Shown: piece after piece, positions 2,636 through 51,204 of the stretch
Numbering within the stretch: the stretch's first letter is position 1
How the letters are laid out: each line of letters begins with the position of its first letter
Assembly (NCBI GenBank): GCA_049296855.1
Contig: JBAQTF010000014.1
Location: 1 to 55,159 of the forward strand
Length of the DNA stretch: 55,159 bases
Direction of reading: 5' to 3'
Source: Minisyncoccia bacterium
Lineage (GTDB): Bacteria > Patescibacteriota > Minisyncoccia > Phycocordibacterales > DATDWN01
Notes under the pieces: model-generated
Databases searched by the model: none
Seen by the model: only the letters and a program-made list of their open reading frames with translations
Told to the model about the DNA's origin: nothing
Program-made: the position numbers and the translations under genes

Positions 2636-3127
2636 CTACGCTCCCTTAGATTTTGCGATCTGATCCAATGCCATTACAAAACCTTGTATTGGTGAGTTAA
2701 TAAGATTAACAAACTGTGCTTGTAGTGTTTTAAGGGAAGGAATTTGTGAGATGACAAGCATTTCTGCTTGATTCATAAATTTGTTCTCAAACACTCCTCC
2801 GACAATCTGTATCTTCTTATCAAGTTTTTTTTGAAATGTATAGACTTCACGTGCCCCCTCTATAGGATCAGTACCATAGACAATACCTAGTTCCCCAGGC
2901 AAGGTCGGCATGTCCCCAGTTATACCCCCGAGAGCAAGGGCCTTTCGAGTTAAAGATTTTTTGGCAACTGTGTAGCCGATTCCTTTTGCTCGTAGGGCTT
3001 TTCTAATAGTAGATGACTCTGTTACAGGCAGAGCGTGGAAGTTTATAAACACCATCGAAGCTGAATCTTTTACTATCTTTTTTAGTTTAGACAGAATCTC
3101 TCCTTTCTTTTCTTTTGATATAGCCAT
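2636..3127 (-). CDS. rplJ: 50S ribosomal protein L10
   Basis: 163-aa ORF directly upstream of rplL with L10-like sequence (MAISKEKK..., VFINFHALPV...). Confidence 0.9.
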   Translation of the reverse strand: MAISKEKKGEILSKLKKIVKDSASMVFINFHALPVTESSTIRKALRAKGIGYTVAKKSLTRKALALGGITGDMPTLPGELGIVYGTDPIEGAREVYTFQKKLDKKIQIVGGVFENKFMNQAEMLVISQIPSLKTLQAQFVNLINSPIQGFVMALDQIAKSKGA

Positions 3128-4458: not shown

Positions 4459-7400
4459 TTAGTTTGCTCGTGTCCAAGTTTGAACTGGGAAGTCTGTGTT
4501 GGATGGGAATCCAGGCAGACCGTATCCGTTTACCCAGTCAAGTTGTAATTGTGAAGCTGCTGTAGCAACTGGAGTCGTTGTTGAGAACGGTGACCAGATG
4601 ATGTTATCTGTAGCAGCAGAACCAGCTTCAACTGAAGTTACTGTACCCATTAGATACTGTTGTGATCCAAATGAAGTATCAGCCAAGAGAGCAAGACCTA
4701 TTGTCTCTGAAACTGAAGCAGTATCAACAGCTGTTGTAGCCTTCAAGATGAAAGTCTTTGTGCTATTTGCTGGAACTATCTGTGCATTAGATGTGCCTGT
4801 ACCGACTAATTCGATAAAGGTTTCACTAGCTACTGTAGAAGTTGAGTTGTTAAACGCAATTCCATCCCCATATAGAACGAAGCCGTTTGTGCTTCCTCCT
4901 GATGTAGCAATTGAGAATGTGAATTTCTGGAATACAACATCTCGATTGTTAGGGTTTGTAACTGTGAATTTGTACAAATCACCTCCTGCAGCCAATGTTC
5001 CACCATTGCTTGTTACAGCAATTGTAGGAACTGTTCTGAAGATTCTCTGACCGTTTGAAGAAACAGCACCTGTAGTACCTCCACTAACAGTTACTTGTGA
5101 ATCATTTCCTGTAGCGTAGTTACCATTTAGTCCGTTGTTGTCTCCGTTGTAATTAACAGTCAAGAATGCTCCTGGTGTACCTTCGTTAATGTTCTGAGCT
5201 GATAGATCACCCTTAACTGTAATCAATACTGACTCACCTGCAGCTATCATAGGAGCAGGAGAGAGTAATGTTGAAGTAGCGTGATCTGGACTAGCACCTC
5301 CAAACTGAGCAGAACCAATCATAGTTGCACCATTGTATAGGTACACTTTCTGACCGACTAGATCAGCTGGTGAGTTTGAAGCTGTGTTTCCAAGAACTAG
5401 AGCGATTTGTTTCAAGTTAACTGCTTCTGAAGCACCTGCTGTAAATCGGAATCTAGCTAGTTCTGAACCTGTAGATCCAGCCTGAGCTACTTTGTAAAGT
5501 AGAGCTGAATCGTTTGTAACTGTGTAAGAACCACCTGTAGAAGCTGTCATTATCTGACCAGCAGCTGCAGTCATTGTCTCTACTATTGTCAAACCTGAAG
5601 TTACTCCAGTTGCACCAGTGTAGGCTGACGATAGATCAGTCAAGCCCCATGTGATGTTTCCTGATGTAGCACTAGCAGAAACGTTACACTTCAATGATAT
5701 TGTCTTTGAAGTACCTTTTGGAACAACAAATCCTCCACTGTTAAATGTGAATGTGTTATCACCAAGGGCTACTGTAACGTTTGTAGCGTCTGTCAAGTTT
5801 GTCGTACCGTCATACAATCCACAGCTTGAAAGCATTGAAGCTGTAACTGTTGTCAAAGCAAGAAGAGGTTTGAATGTTGATAGTCTAACATCTTCTCCTG
5901 ACTGACCTGCATCAAGTGTGTATCGTGCGAACTCAAATCCTTGAGCTCCTGCGATAACTGATCTTGCTGTAGGTTGTGTAGAAACACTGATAGCCAATGC
6001 ACCAGCTCGAACTGTCATCAAGTTTCCTTGAACAGATGAACTAAATGTTGACAAATCAACTGTGTCTCCTGTTGATTCACCTGTTGGAGTTGACCACTGT
6101 GAACTAGGTGTTGTTGAAGCCTGAACTGAGTCTCCAGATATGAAGTCAGAACTTAGTCTACCAACAAGTTTTAGAACTGTAGTACCAACTGGGAATGTTA
6201 CTGAGTCACCAAATGTGACTGTTCCTGATTGAGCTGCACCTGACCCATCCTCTGGACCAGCTAACACAACACCATTTTGGTTAACCAATTTGATGTTTGT
6301 AATGTGTGCAACTGTATCACCGACAGCAGTAATGTTGAATACCATTTGCTGAACAGTCATAGGTTCACCGCTGAGTTTAACTTCAAATCCACCTAATGGT
6401 TGATCTGCAACTAAAACAGCAATGTTCTGAGCAGCAACAGTGTTTGATTGAGATATGGTATTTGCTACACCAGCTGTGATTGTTACGTTAGAAGCGTTGT
6501 ACCAAGGTGTAGTTGTGTTAAATCCTGTTCCTGTTGAAGCAGGAGTGATTCCGTAACCATAAGTTTCACCTGTTAGGTAAAGATCTGTTGATTTATAAAG
6601 ATCAAAAGATACTTGTCTGTTTGTACCACTAACTATATCACCCTTGATAGAAACTTCTTTTGACAAACCTTCTGCAATAAGAATTCCACCAGGGAATGAA
6701 GCTGAGTAGTATTTACCATCAGAAGAAACCATTGTGTCATATGCAGTACCGTCAACATAAACCTTTACGTTAGCAAGGTCTGATGCCGAAGCTGAACCTG
6801 ACTGATTCCATCTGATAGACCATAGTCTTAGATCTTCACCTGAACCAGCATCAACTTTAACAGAAGAAAATGTGTAGTTTGTTGTACCAATTTCCTTGTT
6901 AGCAGTTGTGTTTGGATCAAGAGAACCTCTAGAAGGTGTTGAAGCTCCTAGTGATAAGTTACTATTCAATGTATGTGATGCTCCTGAGATAGGAAGTGAG
7001 CCTGAAACTGATGCTGAAGTGTTAACTGCAACAACATTTAGACCTGCAACCTGACCAGTATGAGCAGCCATAAGAGCAGCAGTTGTCATGTTACCAGCAA
7101 CAGTCAAAGTCTGAGATGTTCCAGCTTTAACAACAAATGGTTCACCGACTACGGCTTGGTCATTTGAGTTAATAGTTCTTGAAACTCCGATTTGTGTGCC
7201 GTCGCTCTTTAGAAGAACAACGCCAGCAAAAGCGGCATTATCTGCTAGACCTACTCGCTGTACTGTGACTGAATTAACTGTGACATCGCTTGCTCCAGCT
7301 GTAACTACGAACCTTGTGAAAGGAACGCGTGCTGCTGTCGCAGGTGCGAGTGAGTTAACAGGTTGTGAACCAGCCATTACTGACAAAGCACCACCTTGTG

Positions 7401-7887
7401 GGTTAGTACCTGGAACAGTTGGAACTGAAGTTACACCACCACCCATTGAGTTAAGTTTAGCTCGTGTTATAGGACCGACGTAACCAGCAGCTGGTGAAAT
7501 TCCATTTTTTGTCTGGAATTTTGCAACAGCTGATCTAGTTAGAGGACCGAAAGTAGAAGTCTCCATGCCTGGTGAACCAGCGCCTGAAGAAGCTACTTGA
7601 GTATCAGCACTCATGTTTAGAACCTTTTGTAGGTTCATAACATCTGCACCTTTACTACCGATTGTTAAGTTTGTATTGAATGTGTAGCCAGATGAAACTG
7701 TACTACCACCCGTTGTCGCTGAAAGTTGTGCTTGCAACGCGCTAATGGTTGCTAGCAAGCTGTTGATCTGTGCCTGTAGATCTGAAGCTGTATCTGCACT
7801 AGCCAATACTGGCATGAATGCAGAAATCGCCATTACAAATCCAACAGCACCAGCTGCCAACTTTGCAGTTTTTGATGTTGTTATCAT
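4459..7887 (-). CDS. Giant secreted cell-surface protein (about 1142 aa) with an N-terminal peptidoglycan-binding-like domain and long Thr/Ser/Gly/Val-rich beta-repeat region
   Basis: Signal peptide MITTSKTAKLAAGAVGFVMAISAFMPVLASA. PG-binding-like segment GSKGADVMNLQKVLN...LTRSAVAKFQTKNGI. The start is moved to Met43 of the tracked ORF. Confidence 0.85.
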   Translation of the reverse strand: MITTSKTAKLAAGAVGFVMAISAFMPVLASADTASDLQAQINSLLATISALQAQLSATTGGSTVSSGYTFNTNLTIGSKGADVMNLQKVLNMSADTQVASSGAGSPGMETSTFGPLTRSAVAKFQTKNGISPAAGYVGPITRAKLNSMGGGVTSVPTVPGTNPQGGALSVMAGSQPVNSLAPATAARVPFTRFVVTAGASDVTVNSVTVQRVGLADNAAFAGVVLLKSDGTQIGVSRTINSNDQAVVGEPFVVKAGTSQTLTVAGNMTTAALMAAHTGQVAGLNVVAVNTSASVSGSLPISGASHTLNSNLSLGASTPSRGSLDPNTTANKEIGTTNYTFSSVKVDAGSGEDLRLWSIRWNQSGSASASDLANVKVYVDGTAYDTMVSSDGKYYSASFPGGILIAEGLSKEVSIKGDIVSGTNRQVSFDLYKSTDLYLTGETYGYGITPASTGTGFNTTTPWYNASNVTITAGVANTISQSNTVAAQNIAVLVADQPLGGFEVKLSGEPMTVQQMVFNITAVGDTVAHITNIKLVNQNGVVLAGPEDGSGAAQSGTVTFGDSVTFPVGTTVLKLVGRLSSDFISGDSVQASTTPSSQWSTPTGESTGDTVDLSTFSSSVQGNLMTVRAGALAISVSTQPTARSVIAGAQGFEFARYTLDAGQSGEDVRLSTFKPLLALTTVTASMLSSCGLYDGTTNLTDATNVTVALGDNTFTFNSGGFVVPKGTSKTISLKCNVSASATSGNITWGLTDLSSAYTGATGVTSGLTIVETMTAAAGQIMTASTGGSYTVTNDSALLYKVAQAGSTGSELARFRFTAGASEAVNLKQIALVLGNTASNSPADLVGQKVYLYNGATMIGSAQFGGASPDHATSTLLSPAPMIAAGESVLITVKGDLSAQNINEGTPGAFLTVNYNGDNNGLNGNYATGNDSQVTVSGGTTGAVSSNGQRIFRTVPTIAVTSNGGTLAAGGDLYKFTVTNPNNRDVVFQKFTFSIATSGGSTNGFVLYGDGIAFNNSTSTVASETFIELVGTGTSNAQIVPANSTKTFILKATTAVDTASVSETIGLALLADTSFGSQQYLMGTVTSVEAGSAATDNIIWSPFSTTTPVATAASQLQLDWVNGYGLPGFPSNTDFPVQTWTRAN

Positions 7888-7999
7888 ATATATGTTTTTA
7901 ATAAAATAACTTTCTCTATCCTTACTATTAATAATTTTAATAGAGATGAAGTTATGGAAAACGATTAACGCTATTAATACTAACTGAATAATTTTTGAC

Positions 8000-23360: not shown

Positions 23361-26300
23361 TTATTTCATAATGGAGAAAGATATCTCCCCATCTGATTCA
23401 ACGATATAATTTTGTTTTTCTTTTGAATATAAAATTTCCGTTATTTGAGTTGGTAACTTTATCATCTCAACATAATAATCAATTAAATTTTGTTTATTTG
23501 TACAGACAACTATTTTTATATTATCACTTGGACTAAGTTTCTCTGTCTTTCTGGCATCTTGAATAGCTCGTATAATATCTCGGGCAATTCCTTCTTCTTT
23601 TAATTCTTCCGTAAGATTTGTGTCTAATTTTATTTCTTTTCCAACTTTAACTTTTTTAACGTTGACCTCATCAGCAATAATATCTAATAGTTCTCGTGAA
23701 AATTTTTGTGGGATAGTAAGTGAAGCTAATGGTTGCCTAACTTTATGTCCTGCTTTTTGACGAAGTTCTAATGCACCTGAAACAACTTCTCGGACTTTTT
23801 GCATATCCTGAAGTAGAATTTCATCCACTATATCGCCTTTTGGCCAATCACATAGATGCACACTTTCTGGGTCACTATTTGATTTTATTTTTTGATATAC
23901 ATCTTCGGCAAAGAAAGGTGTAAATGGCGCCATATATTTCACAAACTCGAAAAGAACAAAAAGTGTGGTGGACAATGCATCATTTCTCTCTTGTTTATTG
24001 TCTGATTTGAAACGATCACGCGAACGACGAATATACCAAGTAGAAAAATCGTTTATAAAATCACGAGTTAGACGTGCAGACTCAAACACTTGAAATTTTT
24101 CAAGTGACTCTGTTCCGTTTTTTATAAGCTGACCTAATCTACTCAAAATCCATTTATCCAAAACATTTTTACTTTGGTTATTTGGTCTTGTATTACTGTC
24201 CTTATATAACTCATAGAAAGCCAGGATATTTAAGGCTGGATTAAAAACTTTTTTAAGTATTTCATCAACCGTTTTCTCGTCAAAGTTTTTGGAATCCCCT
24301 GGCTGGTTAACTGTGTACATCCACAAACGTAAAGCGTCCACTCCATATTTATCCATCAATTCCCAAGGATCCAAAATATTACCAATAGACTTTGACATCT
24401 TCCTCCCATCCTTATCCAAGATATGTCCAAGACAAATGACATTTTTATATGCTTTCCCTCTACCCATCAAAATCCCGATAGCATGTAAAGTGTAAAACCA
24501 CCCTCTGGTTTGATCTATAGCTTCAGAAATAAAATCTGCGGGGTAAGCAAGTTTTTCTTTATTAAAAGGATGATGATCCTGAGCAAAAGGCATACTACCT
24601 GAATCAAACCAAACATCCATAACTTCTTTTACCCTTTTTAGTGGATCACCTTTTTCATCAACAAGCTCAACAGAATCTATATATGGCTTATGTAAATCAA
24701 TTTCATATTTATCGTTATGTGGCATTTTTACGAAATCAATCTCTCTTATCTCTGCATTATCGAAATTTTTAAATTCTTTTGTTATTTTTGAAAGATTTCT
24801 ATACGAAAAACCCTTTGAAATCATTTCGATAGCACGACATGGGGCTCCATGAGAAATGATGAGAATATTCTTATCTTTATATTTTTCATCAGTTTCATAC
24901 ATAAATTTACTTAATCTTTGTAAAACTTCATTGTACGATTCCCCATCAGAAACTTTAAAAGCATACCTGTCTTCACTTTTGTTACGCACAGCAAAGAAAT
25001 CTTCCACAGACTTATGGTTAAATTCTCGACCAGTGTTCCATTCTCCTAAGCCAGAATCAGTAATAATTTTATCCTTTGAAAGTCCTATGATTTTTGCAAT
25101 CAAAACTGCAGTCTCCTGTGTTCTAGAAAATGGCGAAACAATGATTAGATCAATAGACTTGTCAGACAGGAATCTGGCAGTTTCTTTTACTTTCTCCGTA
25201 CCACTATTTGTCAAAGGATCTGAAACATCGAAATTTAGGTTTAATATTTTTTTTACATTTCCTTCTGTCTCACCATGTCGCATTACAAAATACTTATTAC
25301 CAGATTTTTTAGAATATTTCTTCAAATCTTCAACACTTCCTACAACTCGATAATTACCATCTTTGTCAGACCAGATAGGAAGTGGCGTCCCCCAATATCT
25401 CTCGCGGCTTATTGCCCAATCTTTTATTTCACGAAGCCACTCACCAAAACGTCCTTCTTTTATATGCTCTGGTTCCCAATGAATATCTTCATTTTCCCTT
25501 ACTAGTTCATCGCGTAATTTGGATATAGCGATATACCAAGAATCCCTAGCATAGTAGATAAGCGGGGTGCTACATCTCCAACAATGAGGATATGAGTGTT
25601 CATATTTTTCTTTTTTAAAAAGTAAACCTCGGTGAGCTAAATCCTTTATAATACCCACTGCAACTTCCTCGTCTTTTACAAACCGATCAGACAAAAAACC
25701 CATTCCGTCAGCAAAATACCCATCCTCTTTTACAAGGTGGTATTTTGGCAAACCGATTTCATTTCCCAGAACAAAATCGTCCTGACCATACATGACAGCA
25801 GTATGGACAACTCCTGTTCCATCTTCTGTGTTGACAAAATCCGCAGAATAAACTTGATACGACTTTTCAAAAGCAATCTTATCTTTTTCTCCAAACTTTT
25901 CTCTCATAAAAGGATATAGTGGTTCGTATTCCATTCCAACACATTCGCTCCCTTTGTGTTCAGCAATTATCTCGAATGGTTCTGTGATTATCGCAAGTCT
26001 ATCCTTTGCTAAAACTAAAATCTCGTCACCGACTTTTGCCTCGACATAAGTAATGTCTTTACCAACTGCGAGTGCAACATTTCCAGGTAAAGTCCAAGGA
26101 GTCGTCGTCCATGCCAAAAAATAACCCTTATCAAATCCCTTTAATTTAAACTTCACTGTAACTGACAAATCTTTATCATCTTGATACCCCTGTGCTAATT
26201 CATGAGAAGATAATGCCGTTCCACAACGAGGGCACCACGGCAAAACTTTGTAGTCTTTGTACAAAAGTTTCTCCTCGTCTACTGTCTTTAGAATATTCCA

Positions 26301-26801
26301 AACGGACTCTATATAGTCCGTATCAAAAGTATAGTAAGCATCTTTCTTATCAACCCAATACCCAATACGATCGGTAAAAACTTCCCAATCATGAACATAA
26401 TCAAACACACTTTGCTTACACTCTTTATTAAACTTCTCTATTCCATAAATCTCAATTTCTTTTTTTGACTTTAGTCCAAGCTTTTTCTCTATTTGTAATT
26501 CAACAGGCAAACCATGTGTGTCCCAGCCACCTTTTCTCCGTACATGAAATCCCTGCATAGTTTTATAACGAGGAATGATATCTTTAAAAACCCGGGCTTC
26601 GAGATGATGCAAAGCTGGTTTTGCATTTGCCGTTGGCGGACCTTCATAGAAAACAAAATTACCCTTTGAAGACGATCTCTCCAGAGTCTTTTTAAAAATC
26701 TCTTTTTCATTCCAAAACTCTAGTATCTTCTCTTCTCTTTTTGATAGATCACTTTTGAGTGTTTTTGGAGCTTTATCTTCGCTACCTTTCATAGAAGCCA
26801 T
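23361..26801 (-). CDS. ileS: Isoleucyl-tRNA synthetase (type 2-like) with an inserted histidine-phosphatase (phosphoglycerate-mutase-like) domain
   Basis: PPTANAKPALHH, KMSKSIGN, DQTRGWFY. The insert is YFVMRHGETEGN...SPFSRTQETA...ISHGAP, lying between PLPIW and DLHKPYID. The start is taken at MASMKG (26801) or MKG (26792). Confidence 0.9.
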   Translation of the reverse strand: MASMKGSEDKAPKTLKSDLSKREEKILEFWNEKEIFKKTLERSSSKGNFVFYEGPPTANAKPALHHLEARVFKDIIPRYKTMQGFHVRRKGGWDTHGLPVELQIEKKLGLKSKKEIEIYGIEKFNKECKQSVFDYVHDWEVFTDRIGYWVDKKDAYYTFDTDYIESVWNILKTVDEEKLLYKDYKVLPWCPRCGTALSSHELAQGYQDDKDLSVTVKFKLKGFDKGYFLAWTTTPWTLPGNVALAVGKDITYVEAKVGDEILVLAKDRLAIITEPFEIIAEHKGSECVGMEYEPLYPFMREKFGEKDKIAFEKSYQVYSADFVNTEDGTGVVHTAVMYGQDDFVLGNEIGLPKYHLVKEDGYFADGMGFLSDRFVKDEEVAVGIIKDLAHRGLLFKKEKYEHSYPHCWRCSTPLIYYARDSWYIAISKLRDELVRENEDIHWEPEHIKEGRFGEWLREIKDWAISRERYWGTPLPIWSDKDGNYRVVGSVEDLKKYSKKSGNKYFVMRHGETEGNVKKILNLNFDVSDPLTNSGTEKVKETARFLSDKSIDLIIVSPFSRTQETAVLIAKIIGLSKDKIITDSGLGEWNTGREFNHKSVEDFFAVRNKSEDRYAFKVSDGESYNEVLQRLSKFMYETDEKYKDKNILIISHGAPCRAIEMISKGFSYRNLSKITKEFKNFDNAEIREIDFVKMPHNDKYEIDLHKPYIDSVELVDEKGDPLKRVKEVMDVWFDSGSMPFAQDHHPFNKEKLAYPADFISEAIDQTRGWFYTLHAIGILMGRGKAYKNVICLGHILDKDGRKMSKSIGNILDPWELMDKYGVDALRLWMYTVNQPGDSKNFDEKTVDEILKKVFNPALNILAFYELYKDSNTRPNNQSKNVLDKWILSRLGQLIKNGTESLEKFQVFESARLTRDFINDFSTWYIRRSRDRFKSDNKQERNDALSTTLFVLFEFVKYMAPFTPFFAEDVYQKIKSNSDPESVHLCDWPKGDIVDEILLQDMQKVREVVSGALELRQKAGHKVRQPLASLTIPQKFSRELLDIIADEVNVKKVKVGKEIKLDTNLTEELKEEGIARDIIRAIQDARKTEKLSPSDNIKIVVCTNKQNLIDYYVEMIKLPTQITEILYSKEKQNYIVESDGEISFSIMK

Positions 26802-26805
26802 ATTA

Positions 26806-28509
26806 TCACATTTTCTCTGGAATTTTAATCCCCAATAAATTAAGACCGGAAGCCATAACTTGAACAAATACCTTCGTTATGGCCAAACGATAAGAAGAAG
26901 ATTTGTCTTCTACATCTATTATTTTGTGTGAGGCATAAAATGAATTGAACTCACCCGCCAGTTCAATGAGATACGTTGCAATATGGTGTGGAGCATATTC
27001 CATTCCCGCTCGAGCAACAATGTCTGGAAACCTCTCAAGATACCTCTCAAGATTTGTCGTCTCCCACTCACTCGGAAGCTTGGTTTCTGATTTCACAAAG
27101 GGGTCCCCTTTGTGGAATTCTTTTTCGGATTTTTTCAGGACAGATTTTGCTCTCACAGCGGAATACTGCAGATATGGCCCTGAATCCCCCTCAAAAGATA
27201 TGGATTTATCAAAATCAAAAATAATATCACCGCCGATAGCCTGCCGAAGTATCGAGTATTTTATCGCACCGATTGCTATTTGCTCAGCCAAAATTACCTT
27301 TTGTGTGTCATCAATATCCTTATGAAGTTGGCCACTGTCCCACATCTTTTCCAAAACCCTATCTTGCGTTTGCTGAATCAGAGCTTCCGCAGAAATGATA
27401 TTCCCTTCTCGCGATGACATTTTCCCTGTTGGAAGTTTCAAAAGCCCATGTGACAAATGAGTCAACTTTCCTTTTAAATCTGGAAAAACTTCACCAATAG
27501 CCACTTCCACCACTTTGAAAAACGAATCCTGTTCATTTGCCGTGACTGTTATGGACATATCATATGAAAACCAATCTTTTTTTATCTGAGCCAGACCGAG
27601 CTCTTTGGCTTCATATGTCGGCAGACCTTCAGAGTTTAGAAAGACTCTTGTGTGGGTTTTTGGCTCAAAGTTTTCTCCTTTGAAGATAACTGCACCCTTC
27701 ACACCTTTTTCGAAAACTTTACCAACATTTTCCAAAACTAACTCTTTACCGACTTCTCCACTTTCACTTTCAAAAAAGTGATAATCAAAATGATTATCTA
27801 ATTTTTCGTATAATTTTTCAAAATATTCTACCGATTCCTGCCTACCACCCTCATATATTTTATTTATCTCTGGATCACTTTCATCGTATATTTTTGTGTT
27901 TATTTTTGTTATTTCCCGTTTTGCTTTTTCGTCATCTTCATATGCCTTATGTCCAAAAGCATAAGCTTCTTTTATAGAAATGCCTTGCTTTAACGCCCAG
28001 ACGGCTTTGGCGACATGCAAACCAACATCACCATGATATGTAGCAGTTTGCACTTCTGCACCGTTTGCTTTAACAATTCTTGCTACAGACTCCCCTATAG
28101 TATTGTTCATCAAATGCCCTATGTGAAATGTTTTAAAAGGGTTTGGTTGAGTGTGTTCAATGAAAACTTTGTAACCTTTTGCATGTTCATTTTTTCCGTA
28201 TTCACTATCTTTCAAAATATCTTTCACAACATCACCAAAATATTCTTTGTCGAAAGAAAAATTTATAAATCCTGGAGCGACAACCCTGATTTTGATTTGC
28301 TTTAGCAAATCACCCTGAGTAAGTCGAAGGGTTATCTCCTCTGCTAGGTCAATCGGTTTATTCCTCAGCTCTTTTGCATAGGCCATAGCAACATTCGTCG
28401 AATAATCCCCCTTATCGAGATAAACAGAGGGTGTCAGTCTAACCTTAGGATTTTTAATTCCTTTTTTCTCCAGGAAACTCTTTATTTCTTTTTCCAATGT
28501 TTCCTTCAT
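26806..28509 (-). CDS. argS: Arginyl-tRNA synthetase
   Basis: NPFKTFHIGHLMN (HIGH motif), 567 aa, with an ArgRS-like N-terminal additional domain. Confidence 0.9.
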   Translation of the reverse strand: MKETLEKEIKSFLEKKGIKNPKVRLTPSVYLDKGDYSTNVAMAYAKELRNKPIDLAEEITLRLTQGDLLKQIKIRVVAPGFINFSFDKEYFGDVVKDILKDSEYGKNEHAKGYKVFIEHTQPNPFKTFHIGHLMNNTIGESVARIVKANGAEVQTATYHGDVGLHVAKAVWALKQGISIKEAYAFGHKAYEDDEKAKREITKINTKIYDESDPEINKIYEGGRQESVEYFEKLYEKLDNHFDYHFFESESGEVGKELVLENVGKVFEKGVKGAVIFKGENFEPKTHTRVFLNSEGLPTYEAKELGLAQIKKDWFSYDMSITVTANEQDSFFKVVEVAIGEVFPDLKGKLTHLSHGLLKLPTGKMSSREGNIISAEALIQQTQDRVLEKMWDSGQLHKDIDDTQKVILAEQIAIGAIKYSILRQAIGGDIIFDFDKSISFEGDSGPYLQYSAVRAKSVLKKSEKEFHKGDPFVKSETKLPSEWETTNLERYLERFPDIVARAGMEYAPHHIATYLIELAGEFNSFYASHKIIDVEDKSSSYRLAITKVFVQVMASGLNLLGIKIPEKM

Positions 28510-39787: not shown

Positions 39788-39942
39788 TGGGTGGCTACTG
39801 GGAGATTCGACCCTTACATGGTCAGTACCCTAATTGGATATTTTATTTCGTAAACTCATAAAATATCTCAATCGGGCTTCGACTCCAGCCGTAAGTGCTC
39901 CCAGCACTTACTTAGCCACATAAAATAACTTCGTTATTTTTG
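39788..39942 (-). ncRNA. tRNA-trailer structured element (His copy), tRNA-like closing stem
   Basis: Lies directly 3' of tRNA-His. It ends in a 17-nt exact copy (39788-804) of the tRNA 3' end (39941-57). The 5' GUGGCUA pairs with the 3' UAGCCAC. Homologous to 45333-45483 and 51015-51158. Confidence 0.7.
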
Positions 39943-43199: not shown

Positions 43200-43359
43200 A
43201 TAACCACTAGAGCAGTATATGTGAATTCTGACTTTATTTCAAACTAAAAAACCCTTGCATGGCTAGTATACCTTTTTGATTTTTATTCGTTTAACTCAAA
43301 AAAATCTAAAGAAGGTATTAAGAAGTGACAGAGGTCACTTCTTACCTTTCGGATGATTT

Positions 43360-45332: not shown

Positions 45333-45483
45333 CAAAAAGCCGAAGGGCTTTTGTGGGTGATGAGAAAGTGCTGAGAACACTTTCGTGAGGATTCGAAGCC
45401 TGAATGAGATATTTTACGAGCTTTGCGAAATAAAATATCCAATTGGGATACTGAGTCTGTAAGACTCGAGTCCTCCATCCCGA
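45333..45483 (+). ncRNA. tRNA-trailer structured element (Val copy)
   Basis: Starts with hairpin aaaagcc-gaag-ggctttt and ends in a 17-nt exact copy (45466-82) of the tRNA-Val 3' end (45314-30). Homologous to the His and Arg copies. Confidence 0.7.
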
Positions 45484-45508
45484 ACCTTAATAAGTAAATT
45501 TAAAAAAT

Positions 45509-50942: not shown

Positions 50943-51014
50943 GCTCTCGTAGTTTAATGGATAGAATGTTGGCCTGCGAAGCTGGCGATCCAGGTTCGAT
51001 TCCTGGCGAGAGCA
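50943..51014 (+). tRNA. tRNA-Arg (GCG)
   Basis: GCUCUCG acceptor, anticodon loop CUGCGAA, T-arm CCAGG-UUCGAUU-CCUGG. The anticodon stem has three G.U pairs. Confidence 0.75.
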
Positions 51015-51158
51015 CTAAAATTGACGTTCGGAAATTTTGTGCTCCGCAGAAAGTCATGGGACGACTTTCGCTAGGAATCGAAAACCTTTGATAGTTTTTT
51101 AGACAAAAAACAGAAAAGGTGTACCGTTCCTGTAAGGAAAGATTCCTGGTGAGAGCAC
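51015..51158 (+). ncRNA. tRNA-trailer structured element (Arg copy)
   Basis: Ends in gattcctggtgagagcac (51141-58), a copy of the tRNA 3' end (50998-51015) with 1 mismatch. The 5' GUGCUC (51039-44) pairs with GAGCAC (51153-58). Same hairpin order as the Val and His copies. Confidence 0.65.
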
Positions 51159-51176
51159 AAAATTTTTTCCTGATAC

Positions 51177-51202
51177 TAAAAAACCGTGAGCCACGGTTTT
51201 TT
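51177..51202. terminator. Bidirectional terminator (rpsT side and tRNA-Arg side)
   Basis: aaaaaaa-ccgtg-agc-cacgg-tttttt. Confidence 0.75.
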
Positions 51203-51204
51203 GA

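Follow-up and report, generated by a model that had tools for sequence, protein, structure and literature searches.

A structured RNA element, possibly mobile, that carries antisense and sense copies of the adjacent tRNA 3′ end in Patescibacteria

The 143 bases that follow the tRNA-Arg(GCG) gene in a 55,159-nt contig of a Minisyncoccia bacterium (JBAQTF010000014.1; hereafter, the window) belong to a family of elements in which selection maintains the RNA helices of the tRNA-sense strand. This copy is a lineage-specific insertion relative to five related genomes in which the same site is empty. We consider the chances about even that the family represents an undescribed, non-coding, intron-like insertion element made of structured RNA, which occupies tRNA 3′ ends in Patescibacteria (CPR) and rides on tRNA transcription.

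The Arg element spans positions 51016 to 51158, and a sequence check identified it as one real copy; its coordinates and sequence were as described in an initial annotation of the window. The parts are listed in Table 1. The last 18 bases of the element (51141 to 51158, GATTCCTGGTGAGAGCAC) repeat positions 50998 to 51015 with a single C-to-T change at 51150, as had been noted before. The only other place in the window that matches this 18-base repeat with three or fewer mismatches is the 3′ end of tRNA-Arg(TCT) (0.02 matches expected by chance). The source of the repeat, the last ~18 to 24 nt of tRNA-Arg(GCG) from the T loop to the discriminator, is copied by the element in both orientations. 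This had been overlooked in the initial module list: the 5′ half of the element matches the 3′ end of its own tRNA in antisense, in two parts (GUGCUC, then CUAGGAAUCG) with P1 between them. Most of the modules on that list were recovered, namely, the post-tRNA hairpin (weak), GUGCUC, P1, the AU hairpin now called P2b, the GGUGUAC junction, and P3. The exception is a local AGG-AAUCGAAAA-CCU hairpin, which was 81% pairable compared to 77% for shuffled sequences and showed no covariation; its AGG is part of H2, and its CC is part of P2a.

In the Arg copy, the 5′ arm of the spacer hairpin repeats the native A-rich trailer of the tRNA, and its 3′ arm continues into the antisense strand. The AAAAUU of the trailer is seen again behind the distal repeat, as well as at the empty site in a related locus (L056). 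GUGCUC (S′acc) can pair either with positions 51010 to 51015 of the upstream tRNA or with positions 51153 to 51158 of the downstream repeat, with duplex energies of −14.6 and −17.0 kcal/mol, respectively. H2 is a long-range helix that, in the closed fold, joins positions 51071 to 51080 with 51141 to 51149. Within P2, P2a pairs positions 51084 to 51089 with 51115 to 51120, and P2b (GUUUUUU-AGAC-AAAAAAC) pairs 51094 to 51100 with 51105 to 51111. The predicted folding energy of the element RNA alone was −37.4 kcal/mol compared to −24.7 ± 3.9 kcal/mol for shuffled sequences (z = −3.3). No ORF was found in the 125 nt between the Arg repeats; the neighbors are a 151–amino acid ORF, S20, and RuvA. 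The terminator downstream of the element marks the original end of the tRNA-Arg locus.

Table 1. Positions in the window of the parts of the Arg element, its surroundings, and the other copies.
Feature	Positions	Strand	Basis and remarks
tRNA-Arg(GCG), host gene	50943-51015 (50943-51014/15)	+	ARAGORN; Rfam tRNA, 60.1 bits
Spacer (post-tRNA) hairpin uAAAAUU-gacguucgg-AAAUUUU	51016-51038	+	Sequence; weak here, fold −0.4 kcal/mol
S′acc, GUGCUC(CGC)	51039-51047 (GUGCUC, 51039-51044)	+	Antisense of acceptor 3′ strand, discriminator, and next base (GAGCAC)
P1 hairpin GAAAGUC/GACUUUC, loop A-UGGGA-C	51049-51069 (51049-51055 with 51063-51069)	+	Helix 96.7% paired
H2 5′ strand CUAGGAAUCG	51071-51080	+	Antisense of 3′ part of tRNA T loop and 3′ strand of T stem
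P2	51084-51120	+	P2a ACCUUU/AAAGGU, internal loop, AU-rich P2b; short-apex subtype
Single-stranded conserved junction G-UAC-C-G	51121-51126	+	Family consensus GGUACNG
P3 hairpin UUCC-UGUAA-GGAA	51127-51139	+	98.9% paired
Distal direct repeat of tRNA 3′ end, GAUUCCUGGuGAGAGCAC	51141-51164	+	17/18, plus 6-nt trailer AAAAUU; T part is H2 3′ strand
Native bidirectional terminator	51177-51203	+	Terminator scan; common to convergent S20 gene; outside the element
Sister copy after tRNA-Val(TAC)	45334-45485	+	Covariance model, 122.5 bits; sequence
Sister copy after tRNA-His(GTG)	39788-39941	-	Covariance model, 123.8 bits; sequence
Decayed relic copy	43233-43357	-	Covariance model, 34.2 bits, E = 1e-7; upstream of tRNA-Leu(GAG)

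The window holds three intact copies (after tRNA-Val, tRNA-His, and tRNA-Arg) and one decayed relic, in which P1, P2, and P3 are still recognizable while H2 and the UGGGA loop are gone. A 35-base degenerate pattern derived from the three intact copies matches only those three places in the window (0 expected). With the covariance model R1, built from 49 copies, the Arg element scored 112.7 bits (E = 4e-29) over the full model length of 1 to 145. These matches confirm that it belongs to the same family as the Val and His copies. It conforms to the type A definition of the family (P1 - CG - NNNGGANUCGAA - P2 - GGUACNG - P3 with UGUAA loop - CGANUCC) with all helices present; the definition also requires a position directly 3′ of a tRNA in the same orientation. 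The description of the Arg copy as the most diverged member is correct by identity, which is 52 to 54% to the Val and His copies compared to 80% between these two. The low identity is due to the Arg copy being from a different subfamily, one with a short P2, and its nearest relatives are in other genomes (76 to 77% identity). The neighboring genes in the window are housekeeping (UppS, RluA-type, PilM, Fpg, RecA, FtsK, and aminoacyl-tRNA synthetases), and no match was found in 50,697 phage genomes; a phage origin of the window was therefore rejected.

Selection on the RNA structure is evident from the alignments. In a MAFFT alignment of 49 sequences, pairing was 91% compared to 68% after shuffling, and the covariation score was 0.595 (reached in 0 of 500 shuffles) compared to 0.163. 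Covariation, for which the initial annotation had suggested R-scape, was assessed by pair counts and was strong in 70 copies aligned to the model: 92% of cells were paired compared to 65% in shuffled alignments, with changes on both sides at 34 of the 36 pairs. The earlier claim that helices are kept despite sequence change thus holds. P1, P2a, P2b, and P3 are 97 to 99% paired and rich in compensatory changes, which were seen at nine of nine pairs of P1, six of six of P2a (98.1% paired), and five of five of P3; P2b is 96.6% paired, and both-side changes occur at 12 of 12 pairs of P2. The N:N′ pair of H2 covaries (CG, 22; AU, 19; UA, 19), and the H2 5′ strand changes from UCGAA to UUGAA where the tRNA reads UUCAA. 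Opposite the T part of the tRNA, this strand shows G·U over A·C at 19 to 1, and G·U pairs are compatible with the tRNA-sense strand only.

The conserved body consists of P1 and a three-way junction at which H2 meets two hairpins, P2 (long and AU-rich) and P3 (short), with conserved junction bases GAAR and GGUACNG and a UGUAA loop on P3. Part of the conservation seen at several “invariant” bases stems from the search pattern; GUAC.G also reaches at least 80% conservation in the 20 model matches outside the pattern selection, and the UGUAA loop is conserved in non-pattern matches too. The UGGGA loop of P1 is common and non-universal, some variants lack P1, and several different cores occur on the same antisense platform.

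The flanks of the body are specific to the host tRNA. The 5′ flank comprises the small hairpin followed by an inverted copy of the trailer and the acceptor 3′ strand, and this copy takes in locus-specific trailer bases, for example, in L010 and in the window Arg element. The 3′ flank is a direct repeat with its start in the T loop; younger copies continue a few bases beyond the tRNA end. The direct repeat is 10 to 34 nt long across loci, and the repeats differ by tRNA. GGANUCGA and UCGANUCC are exact reverse complements of each other, and N covaries. Across the family, duplex energies show that both antisense parts fit the upstream tRNA better than the downstream repeat. The mean energy of S′acc was −15.5 kcal/mol with its own tRNA compared to −6.8 ± 3.2 kcal/mol with non-cognate tRNAs; for the H2 5′ strand, the means were −16.8 with its own tRNA, −12.3 with the distal repeat, and −11.5 with non-cognate tRNAs. 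S′ is complementary to the tRNA 3′ strand in the Watson-Crick sense, with A opposite U70 in two of three tRNA-Ala loci. This, together with the reverse complementarity, led us to reject the view that the 5′ strand is a copy of the tRNA 5′ acceptor strand, i.e., a duplicated tRNA. S′acc mismatches comprise 10 G·U and 11 A·C; since there is no G·U excess, this pairing may reflect the origin of the strand rather than an RNA function.

The copy of the tRNA 3′ end that the initial annotation had pointed out is present in the Arg element. Family-wide, its T-arm part is present nearly always, whereas the acceptor part is optional, being lost in more than half of the loci with cores intact. The antisense is still perfect despite a decayed distal acceptor repeat in L005, L011, L021, and L022. 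Two functional readings of the flanks were discarded. A retroviral-type primer-binding site for tRNA-primed reverse transcription would not fit, as there is no UGG for CCA and the pairing enters the genomic trailer (UGUG/AAUUUU...); the tRNA genes here encode no CCA. A guide RNA for an adjacent nuclease of the TnpB/IscB/Cas12k type was rejected because the vicinity contains no gene of this kind and the “guide” is base-paired throughout.

The pattern scan yielded 47 loci, all 47 in Patescibacteria or in unclassified “bacterium” MAGs, and 0 matches in 2.9 million viral contigs. The covariance model gave 84 matches at E ≤ 0.1 in 48 sources (70 at E ≤ 1e-10), tandem arrays among them; nearly all lie directly 3′ of tRNA genes of many identities. 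Antisense of the T part of the same tRNA was found downstream of 46 of the 95 tRNAs in the loci and upstream of only 4 of 95, an occupancy of about half that refers to loci each picked for at least one element. Elements are kept at orthologous tRNA-Val(TAC) sites of genomes with 60 to 88% protein identity, and the body is conserved across CPR classes. A neighboring tRNA in L001 contains a classical group I intron.

The insertion of the Arg copy was deduced from syntenic sites. In L049 to L053, L055, and L056, the flanking ORF (70 to 77% amino acid identity) is followed by tRNA-Arg(GCG) without the element, with S20 next where the contig extends that far. The order at the empty sites of L049 and L056 is tRNA, trailer, terminator, and S20, and the trailer found after the distal repeat in the window is orthologous to the empty-site trailer. 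A second contig of the same strain ends just past the flanking ORF and was left out of the comparison. The distinction between gain and loss rests on parsimony, since an exact excision from one direct repeat to the other could leave a site that looks empty. In L005, which is syntenic, the His site has no element. Bodies can be 97% identical behind different tRNAs with unrelated flanks: the window His element and the Cys element of L023 are identical at 19 of 21 positions in P1 and 71 of 73 in the core, but at only 6 of 16 and 2 of 17 in the flanks. The same tRNA-Val(GAC) and tRNA-Val(TAC) sites in related genomes carry elements of different subfamilies. No recombinase, reverse transcriptase, or nuclease is linked to the element at the loci examined, no integrase was found in any of them, and we know of no mechanism by which a target would be copied in direct as well as in inverted orientation. 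The element had initially been viewed as a functional RNA rather than a recent duplication. The structure is indeed under selection; the choice itself is a false one, as the copy is also a lineage-specific insertion.

Comparison with the 4227 models of Rfam 15 (hammerhead, hairpin, twister, pistol, hatchet, HDV-like, group I/II, T-box, tmRNA, Y RNA, 6S, and others) gave no match at the gathering score and only noise at E values up to 10; the variant core in L007 also produced only Rfam noise. In tRNA searches (Rfam RF00005 and ARAGORN), only 50943 to 51014 scored, and nothing in 51016 to 51158 did. No group I or group II intron core was matched by the element in Rfam, an intact, high-scoring tRNA lies upstream where an intron would interrupt its host gene, and 143 nt is below the size of any self-splicing intron known to us. 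As in integrated elements, there is a direct repeat at both ends (17/18 plus 6 nt of trailer); neither an integrase nor cargo was found between the repeats or nearby at the Arg locus. The tRNA-specific repeats, a direct repeat of variable length, and the lack of a fixed target-site duplication set the element apart from MITEs. No known class of self-cleaving ribozyme matched by sequence comparison. A hammerhead-like junction was ruled out by the order and sequence of the junction strands, and an anticodon-like reading of the P1 loop was ruled out because positions 32 and 38 covary as a pair. No linked protein gene was found, the neighbors being housekeeping genes, and a full-text literature search returned no description of the element. 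TIGR-Tas arrays in CPR consist of 36-nt box C/D-type guide RNAs and are unrelated to it (PMC12045711).

The element appears to have no promoter or gene of its own and would be transcribed by read-through from the tRNA gene. Such a transcript could fold in two mutually competing ways. One would be the closed fold, with an intact tRNA beside a closed, tRNA minihelix-like element. In the clamp fold, the antisense would hold the tRNA 3′ end, and the tRNA 5′ half would pair with the distal repeat, amounting to a tRNA whose T loop carries an insertion of ~145 nt. A nearest-neighbor model, which ignores tRNA tertiary structure, modifications, and co-transcriptional folding, favors the clamp fold by 6 to 10 kcal/mol for all three window copies. 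The element may be harmless to the host in the manner of a selfish intron because the 3′ end of the host gene is duplicated. Upon a move, the tRNA-specific flanks would be re-made from the target, probably by fold-back copying of its 3′ end, and tRNA end–processing enzymes probably separate the element from the tRNA. Site persistence and an occupancy of about half would also fit a useful, host-selected function. A joint reading, which we offer tentatively and consider somewhat unlikely as a whole, is that of a protein-free structured-RNA mobile element, a “tRNA T-loop intron with a spare exon.” Having copied the target 3′ end in both orientations, it would produce a transcript that switches between a harmless closed form and one with the element inside the tRNA T loop, and its core would serve either as a new ribozyme, with cleavage/ligation at guide-defined CGA sites, or as a handle for a CPR enzyme.

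Similarly doubtful is a host-selected cis-acting module for tRNA maturation or control, whose antisense clamps the tRNA 3′ end in read-through transcripts. The clamp would be either a ~20- to 26-bp helix through the trailer, an RNase III-type stem, or a T loop held by a three-way junction; the core would bind a protein or ligand or be catalytic, and the distal T-arm repeat would act as an internal competitor that frees the tRNA. The better fit of both antisense segments to the upstream tRNA, their perfection at the four loci where the distal acceptor repeat has decayed, and the favored clamp fold are all consistent with such a module. So are its high prevalence, its retention at orthologous sites, and the varied cores on one antisense platform, which recall aptamers on one expression platform. 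However, the element is missing behind half of the tRNAs and, in close relatives, behind the same tRNA, and relics and tandem arrays resemble junk dynamics. The element lies downstream of a would-be terminating hairpin and therefore would have no control over the termination decision. The absence of G·U bias in the acceptor antisense and of any matching ribozyme or riboswitch model also argues against this role. The idea of an independent trans-acting small RNA driven by the tRNA promoter, which strikes us as distinctly unlikely, takes the 5′ strand and the 3′ repeat as an acceptor/T-arm minihelix cut by RNase P and RNase Z, like plant mitochondrial t-elements and mascRNA, with a core that has an unrelated job, e.g., protein binding. 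The window copies can close a 6- to 7-bp acceptor-like helix on a T stem–like helix, and conservation of the body across CPR classes, including its junction and loop bases, points the same way. But more than half of the loci, including those with the best-scoring cores, no longer have the acceptor repeat that the minihelix requires, the helix often covers the discriminator and trailer, unlike a tRNA end, and a processing helix need not retain the sequence of the neighboring tRNA.

Two further explanations are less probable. An intron-like ribozyme, in our view improbable, would cut 5′ of the CGA paired to the guide GGANUCG, both in the tRNA T loop and before the distal repeat, and then rejoin the ends, releasing a normal tRNA and a ~165-nt, possibly circular, RNA; the reverse reaction would allow spread. 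With respect to the guide helix, the two candidate sites are placed identically in the two folds, the junction nucleotides are conserved, and a circular form would satisfy every helix with a single copy of the tRNA segment. Yet this scheme, wholly inferential, resembles no known self-cleaving or self-splicing ribozyme, the tRNA is already intact without splicing, and copies that lack the distal acceptor repeat could not give a tRNA. That the element is a DNA-level scar, either fused attL/attR remains or a miniature mobilizable form of an integrase-driven T-loop island that restores the tRNA 3′ end, appears very improbable. A direct repeat from the T loop to just beyond the tRNA end is the classic identity block of T-loop integration, and polymorphic presence and arrays agree with this origin. 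It is at odds with the overwhelming evidence of compensatory changes and strand-specific G·U pairs, and the tetraloop-type hairpin apexes point to a selected, folded, tRNA-sense single strand rather than duplex arm sites. Moreover, the loci examined lack an integrase, viral contigs and phage genomes yielded 0 matches, and att sites do not feature an inverted copy of the target.

A large part of bacterial diversity belongs to the CPR, and, to our knowledge, the RNA biology of these bacteria is almost uncharted. With about half of the tRNA genes occupied in loci picked for at least one element, the family would rank among the most abundant structured non-coding RNAs of CPR. We found no described counterpart to an antisense and a sense copy of a host tRNA 3′ end around a conserved junction. 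If mobile, it would be a gene-less RNA element that spreads while an essential host gene stays intact, hinting at target-templated insertion chemistry; if functional, it would add a new layer of tRNA maturation or control in minimal genomes. In practice, these repeats cause assemblies to break at tRNA genes and make tRNA fragments confusing to annotate.

The element shares features with several known systems. Like islands and prophages integrated at T loops (attL/attR), it lies at the tRNA 3′ end, and its presence is polymorphic; its direct repeat, which begins in the T loop and ends slightly beyond the tRNA, leaves the tRNA intact. Unlike them, it is only ~125 to 150 nt long, has no integrase or other gene, and combines a covarying RNA structure with an extra inverted copy of the target and the same body behind many tRNAs. 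Like MITEs, it is a short non-coding sequence that occurs in multiple copies, sometimes in tandem, is polymorphic, and tends to decay. However, its terminal repeats are copies of the target tRNA 3′ end, its orientation is strictly that of the tRNA, and its RNA covaries. HDV-like theta ribozymes and other small RNAs also sit directly 3′ of tRNAs. The element resembles them in being immediately downstream of a tRNA, in the same orientation, and presumably on the same transcript. The element differs in having no HDV-like fold or Rfam match, in being two to three times larger, in carrying antisense and sense copies of the tRNA end, and in residing in CPR chromosomes rather than phages.

Similar to plant mitochondrial t-elements, mascRNA, YrlA/Y RNA, and tmRNA, the closed fold stacks an acceptor-like helix on a T stem–like helix derived from a real tRNA 3′ end. 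In contrast to these RNAs, the element has no D loop, has no T loop because the T-loop bases are paired, and often lacks the acceptor part; the best Y RNA and tmRNA scores in Rfam were noise located on the tRNA itself. Mobile group II (and group I) introns recognize their sites through EBS/IBS or IGS pairing, and the element likewise has a two-part internal complement to ~20 nt of the upstream host gene, occupies specific gene positions, is polymorphic, and decays. It is far smaller than these introns and lacks a conserved core known to Rfam and an intron-encoded protein. Its guide changes with each tRNA, and, unlike genes that harbor introns, its host tRNA gene remains uninterrupted because the 3′ end is duplicated.

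The 143 bases that follow the tRNA-Arg(GCG) gene contain the modules that the initial annotation listed for them, a local AGG/CCU hairpin apart (see the table). The reading of the last segment as a copy of the tRNA 3′ end was borne out: the distal repeat differs from the final 18 tRNA bases by a single C-to-U change, with 0.02 matches expected by chance. A 35-base degenerate pattern derived from the Arg copy and its two sisters, located behind tRNA-Val(TAC) and tRNA-His(GTG), matched only these three copies in 55 kb (expected number, 0). When folded alone, the Arg element scored 3.3 standard deviations better than shuffles. The original observation is real and its structural claim largely holds; the element is more unusual than was proposed, belonging to a widespread, unannotated class of CPR RNA elements, each organized around the 3′ end of the tRNA that it follows.

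Features of the Arg copy and related loci (window coordinates unless a locus handle, L, denotes another genome)
Feature	Position (strand)	Remarks
tRNA-Arg(GCG)	50943-51014/15	ARAGORN; Rfam tRNA, 60 bits
Weak AU hairpin	51016-51038	directly after tRNA-Arg
GUGCUC	51039-44	
P1, GAAAGUC/GACUUUC	51049-69	loop UGGGA
H2, 5′ strand NNNGGANUCG	51071-80	pairs with CGANUCCNNN, 51141-49
AU-rich hairpin, GUUUUUU-AGAC-AAAAAAC	51094-51111	
GGUGUAC		between AU-rich hairpin and P3
P3, UUCC-UGUAA-GGAA	51127-39	
Distal repeat GAUUCCUGGUGAGAGCAC	51141-58	copy of tRNA-Arg 3′ end
Native terminator	51177-51203	beyond distal repeat
Decayed fourth copy	43233-43357 (-)	upstream of tRNA-Leu(GAG)
Variant core	L007 808-975 (-)	
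Variant core	L019 6639-6783 (+)	
Variant cores	L041 5160-5310 (-), 7770-7950 (+)	
Variant core	L017 2200-2400 (+)	
Variant core	L026 1945-2190 (+)	
Variant core	L043 60-250 (-)	
Variant core	L039 2320-2445 (+)	

The window is a Patescibacteria (CPR) chromosome. It encodes undecaprenyl-diphosphate synthase, pseudouridine synthase, PilM, Fpg, RecA, FtsK, and four aminoacyl-tRNA synthetases, has a GC content of 34 to 43%, and its proteins are nearest to those of Zambryskibacteria, Paceibacterota, and Parcubacteria MAGs; one fetched locus, L005, is syntenic with it at 60 to 88% protein identity. A phage origin was ruled out, as no DNA match was found in phage genomes and the genes are cellular housekeeping ones. 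The isoleucyl-tRNA synthetase ORF [23364-26867 (-), 1168 amino acids] has a His_Phos_1 (histidine-phosphatase) domain inserted within the synthetase at residues 527 to 695.

Scanning one genome per species with the element pattern yielded 47 loci. All those with a taxon name are Patescibacteria (Saccharibacteria, Paceibacterota/Parcubacteria, Kaiser-, Zambryski-, Nomura-, and Taylorbacteria), and five are labeled just “bacterium”; the same pattern had no match among 2.9 million viral contigs. With a covariance model derived from 49 copies, 84 matches at E ≤ 0.1 were obtained across 48 sources, tandem arrays included. The host tRNAs include Met, Tyr, Gly, Val, Ala, Ser, Ile, Leu, Gln, Arg, Cys, Glu, His, Asp, Lys, and Trp. 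In the fetched loci, the antisense of a tRNA’s own T-arm 3′ part lies within 200 nt downstream for 46 of 95 tRNAs, a rate that overstates the genome-wide one because each locus was chosen for carrying at least one element, and upstream for 4 of 95. Neither the window copies nor the variant scanned (L007) matched any Rfam 15 family, and a literature search found no description of such an element. The family is structured and strand-specific and sits behind CPR tRNA genes; it lacks coding capacity, has no gene linked to it, and belongs to no known family. A full element also follows a tRNA with anticodon UUA that ARAGORN calls “Stop” [L016 4187-4260 (+)].

Pairing was counted on 70 copies, with RNAalifold in agreement with the explicit counts. 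P1, P2a, P2b, and P3 had 96.7, 98.1, 96.6, and 98.9% of cells paired, respectively; for all helices, the value was 92.1% compared to 65.1% in shuffles, and it fell to ~50% when the partner was shifted by one column. Both sides had changed in 34 of 36 pairs, as expected from the earlier claim that helices are kept despite divergence. The local AGG/CCU hairpin was unsupported, its bases being taken up by P2a and by a fifth, long-range helix, H2. The variable N of H2 pairs with N′ as CG (22), AU (19), and UA (19), and its UCGAA is replaced by UUGAA in just those copies whose tRNA has UUCAA in the T loop. Against the tRNA T part, G.U exceeds A.C by 19 to 1; since G.U pairs are frequent, the folded strand is the tRNA-sense strand. 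In 20 model matches outside the search pattern, the unpaired GAA(G/A) after H2, G-GUAC-N-G between P2 and P3, and the P3 loop UGUAA are conserved, while the P1 loop is variable and P1 is sometimes absent.

The flanks are tRNA-specific, both antisense and sense. S′acc (GUGCUC in the Arg copy) and the H2 5′ strand form a two-part antisense, split by P1, of the host tRNA’s last 20 to 24 nt. Mean duplex energies of S′acc were −15.5 kcal/mol with its own tRNA, −8.4 with the distal repeat, and −6.8 ± 3.2 with non-cognate tRNAs; for the H2 5′ strand, they were −16.8, −12.3, and −11.5 ± 2.9 kcal/mol. S′ complements the tRNA 3′ strand by Watson-Crick pairing and is not a copy of the tRNA 5′ strand; at two of the three tRNA-Ala loci, it has an A facing U70. 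S′ and the spacer hairpin together make a single long hairpin beginning within the tRNA (22 to 26 bp in L021 and L022). Spacer hairpins fall into weak AU-rich and strong terminator-like classes, and the distal acceptor repeat has tended to disappear from copies that have the strong class. Their apex is very often a C-GAAG or GNRA tetraloop (GCGAAGC-type mini-hairpin), as at 45341-45351 (+) and 39924-39934 (-) in the window and in the spacers of L014, L027, L029, L043, and L047. The direct repeat begins within the T loop and reaches 0 to 13 nt beyond the tRNA end in 12 to 13 of 30 loci; the remaining loci keep just its T part, yet have the best-scoring cores. Since repeats include trailer bases but lack CCA, they were copied from the gene or primary transcript rather than from mature tRNA. 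About one-third of distal repeats, behind different tRNAs, share a 2-nt insertion, AU or AC, in the copied T-loop part [window 39806-39807 (-); L010, L011, L018, L021, L032, and L038], which would create a bulge in H2.

Comparison with related genomes shows the Arg copy to be an insertion. Seven loci from five relatives (L049 to L053, L055, and L056; flanking-ORF identity of 70 to 77%) have the same ORF and tRNA-Arg(GCG) without the element, followed, in the four relatives with contigs long enough (all but L055), by a trailer, sometimes a terminator, and convergent S20. The L056 trailer, AAAAUAUUCCUAAC, matches the sequence after the window’s distal repeat, AAAAUUUUUUCCUGAUAC, and the native terminator also lies beyond that repeat. 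The insertion thus consists of hairpin–S′–P1–H2–P2–P3–repeat or, equivalently, of repeat–hairpin–...–P3 set into the T loop. An RVT_1 (reverse-transcriptase) gene is found ~1 kb from two of the empty sites [L051 4001-4885 (-) and L052 2708-3841 (-)].

Other sites also differ in content. An element occupies the tRNA-His site in the window and L047; syntenic L005 has none there, and L041 and L039 carry other core types. The elements of the window and of L005/L025 at the orthologous tRNA-Val(TAC)-dinB site have P1, P3, and H2 in common but differ in P2 subtype, and the tRNA-Val(GAC) sites of L008 and L018 hold different subfamilies. The window His body and the tRNA-Cys element of L023 are identical at 19 of 21 P1 and 71 of 73 core positions, compared to 6 of 16 and 2 of 17 in the flanks. 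The Arg copy is nearest to tRNA-Ile elements of other genomes (76 to 77%, versus 52 to 54% for its window siblings). Element bodies therefore relocate, or are traded, from one tRNA locus to another, with flanks remade for each tRNA. In L010 and the window Arg copy, the inverted copy contains locus-specific trailer, which speaks for the target as the source of at least the acceptor/trailer antisense. The family also shows relics, arrays, and exchange of modules: the decayed window copy, found with the covariance model, keeps P1, P2, and P3 and has lost the T-arm helix and UGGGA loop.

Variants share a platform (hairpin–S′–P1–CG–T-arm antisense, behind tRNAs) that carries an “alpha” block (GACGGAG...) or a “gamma” block (GCGAGUCGGGGUCGAG, an AU hairpin, and GUGACC); some are mosaics of these blocks with P2-P3. 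L001 has four tandem P1-less units, in which the antisense is contiguous; upstream of them, a tRNA gene [2670-2960 (-)] is interrupted by an intron of the classical group I type (agagactaga ... aagatatagtcc). In L018 [6329-6480 (-)], a tRNA-like 5′ half (acceptor, D arm, and anticodon arm with UUG) is fused to P1-P2-P3 just upstream of an intact tRNA-Glu. Behind tRNA-His in L041 [7691-7950 (+)], the antisense and distal repeat agree with each other and match the tRNA-His of its relative L039 (UAGUCACCCA), not the present upstream tRNA (CGGUCACCCA); either the original tRNA was replaced or it has diverged since insertion.

For tRNA-plus-element transcripts of all three window copies, a nearest-neighbor model, which ignores tertiary structure, modification, and folding order, prefers by 6 to 10 kcal/mol a clamp fold over a closed fold, in which a normal tRNA stands beside a closed element. 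In the clamp fold, the antisense holds the tRNA’s own 3′ end and the distal repeat pairs with the tRNA 5′ acceptor and T-stem strands, giving a tRNA with a ~145-nt insertion in the T loop. A switch between these predicted folds is possible.

Our preferred reading is that of a selfish, intron-like element that would be expressed by read-through from the tRNA gene and separated from the tRNA by tRNA-end-processing enzymes. The duplicated tRNA 3′ end would spare the host, and the flanks may arise by target-templated (fold-back) synthesis. The main rival is a cis module of use to the host, which would clamp the 3′ end of the tRNA so that it can be processed or controlled. In its favor, the antisense fits the tRNA better than it fits the distal repeat, elements have long been retained at some sites, and occupancy of tRNAs is high; against it, close relatives do without the element, and relics and arrays exist. 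Because of its RNA-type covariation and the lack of integrases and viral matches, the element is unlikely to be the scar of an att site. It could conceivably be a new ribozyme or intron.
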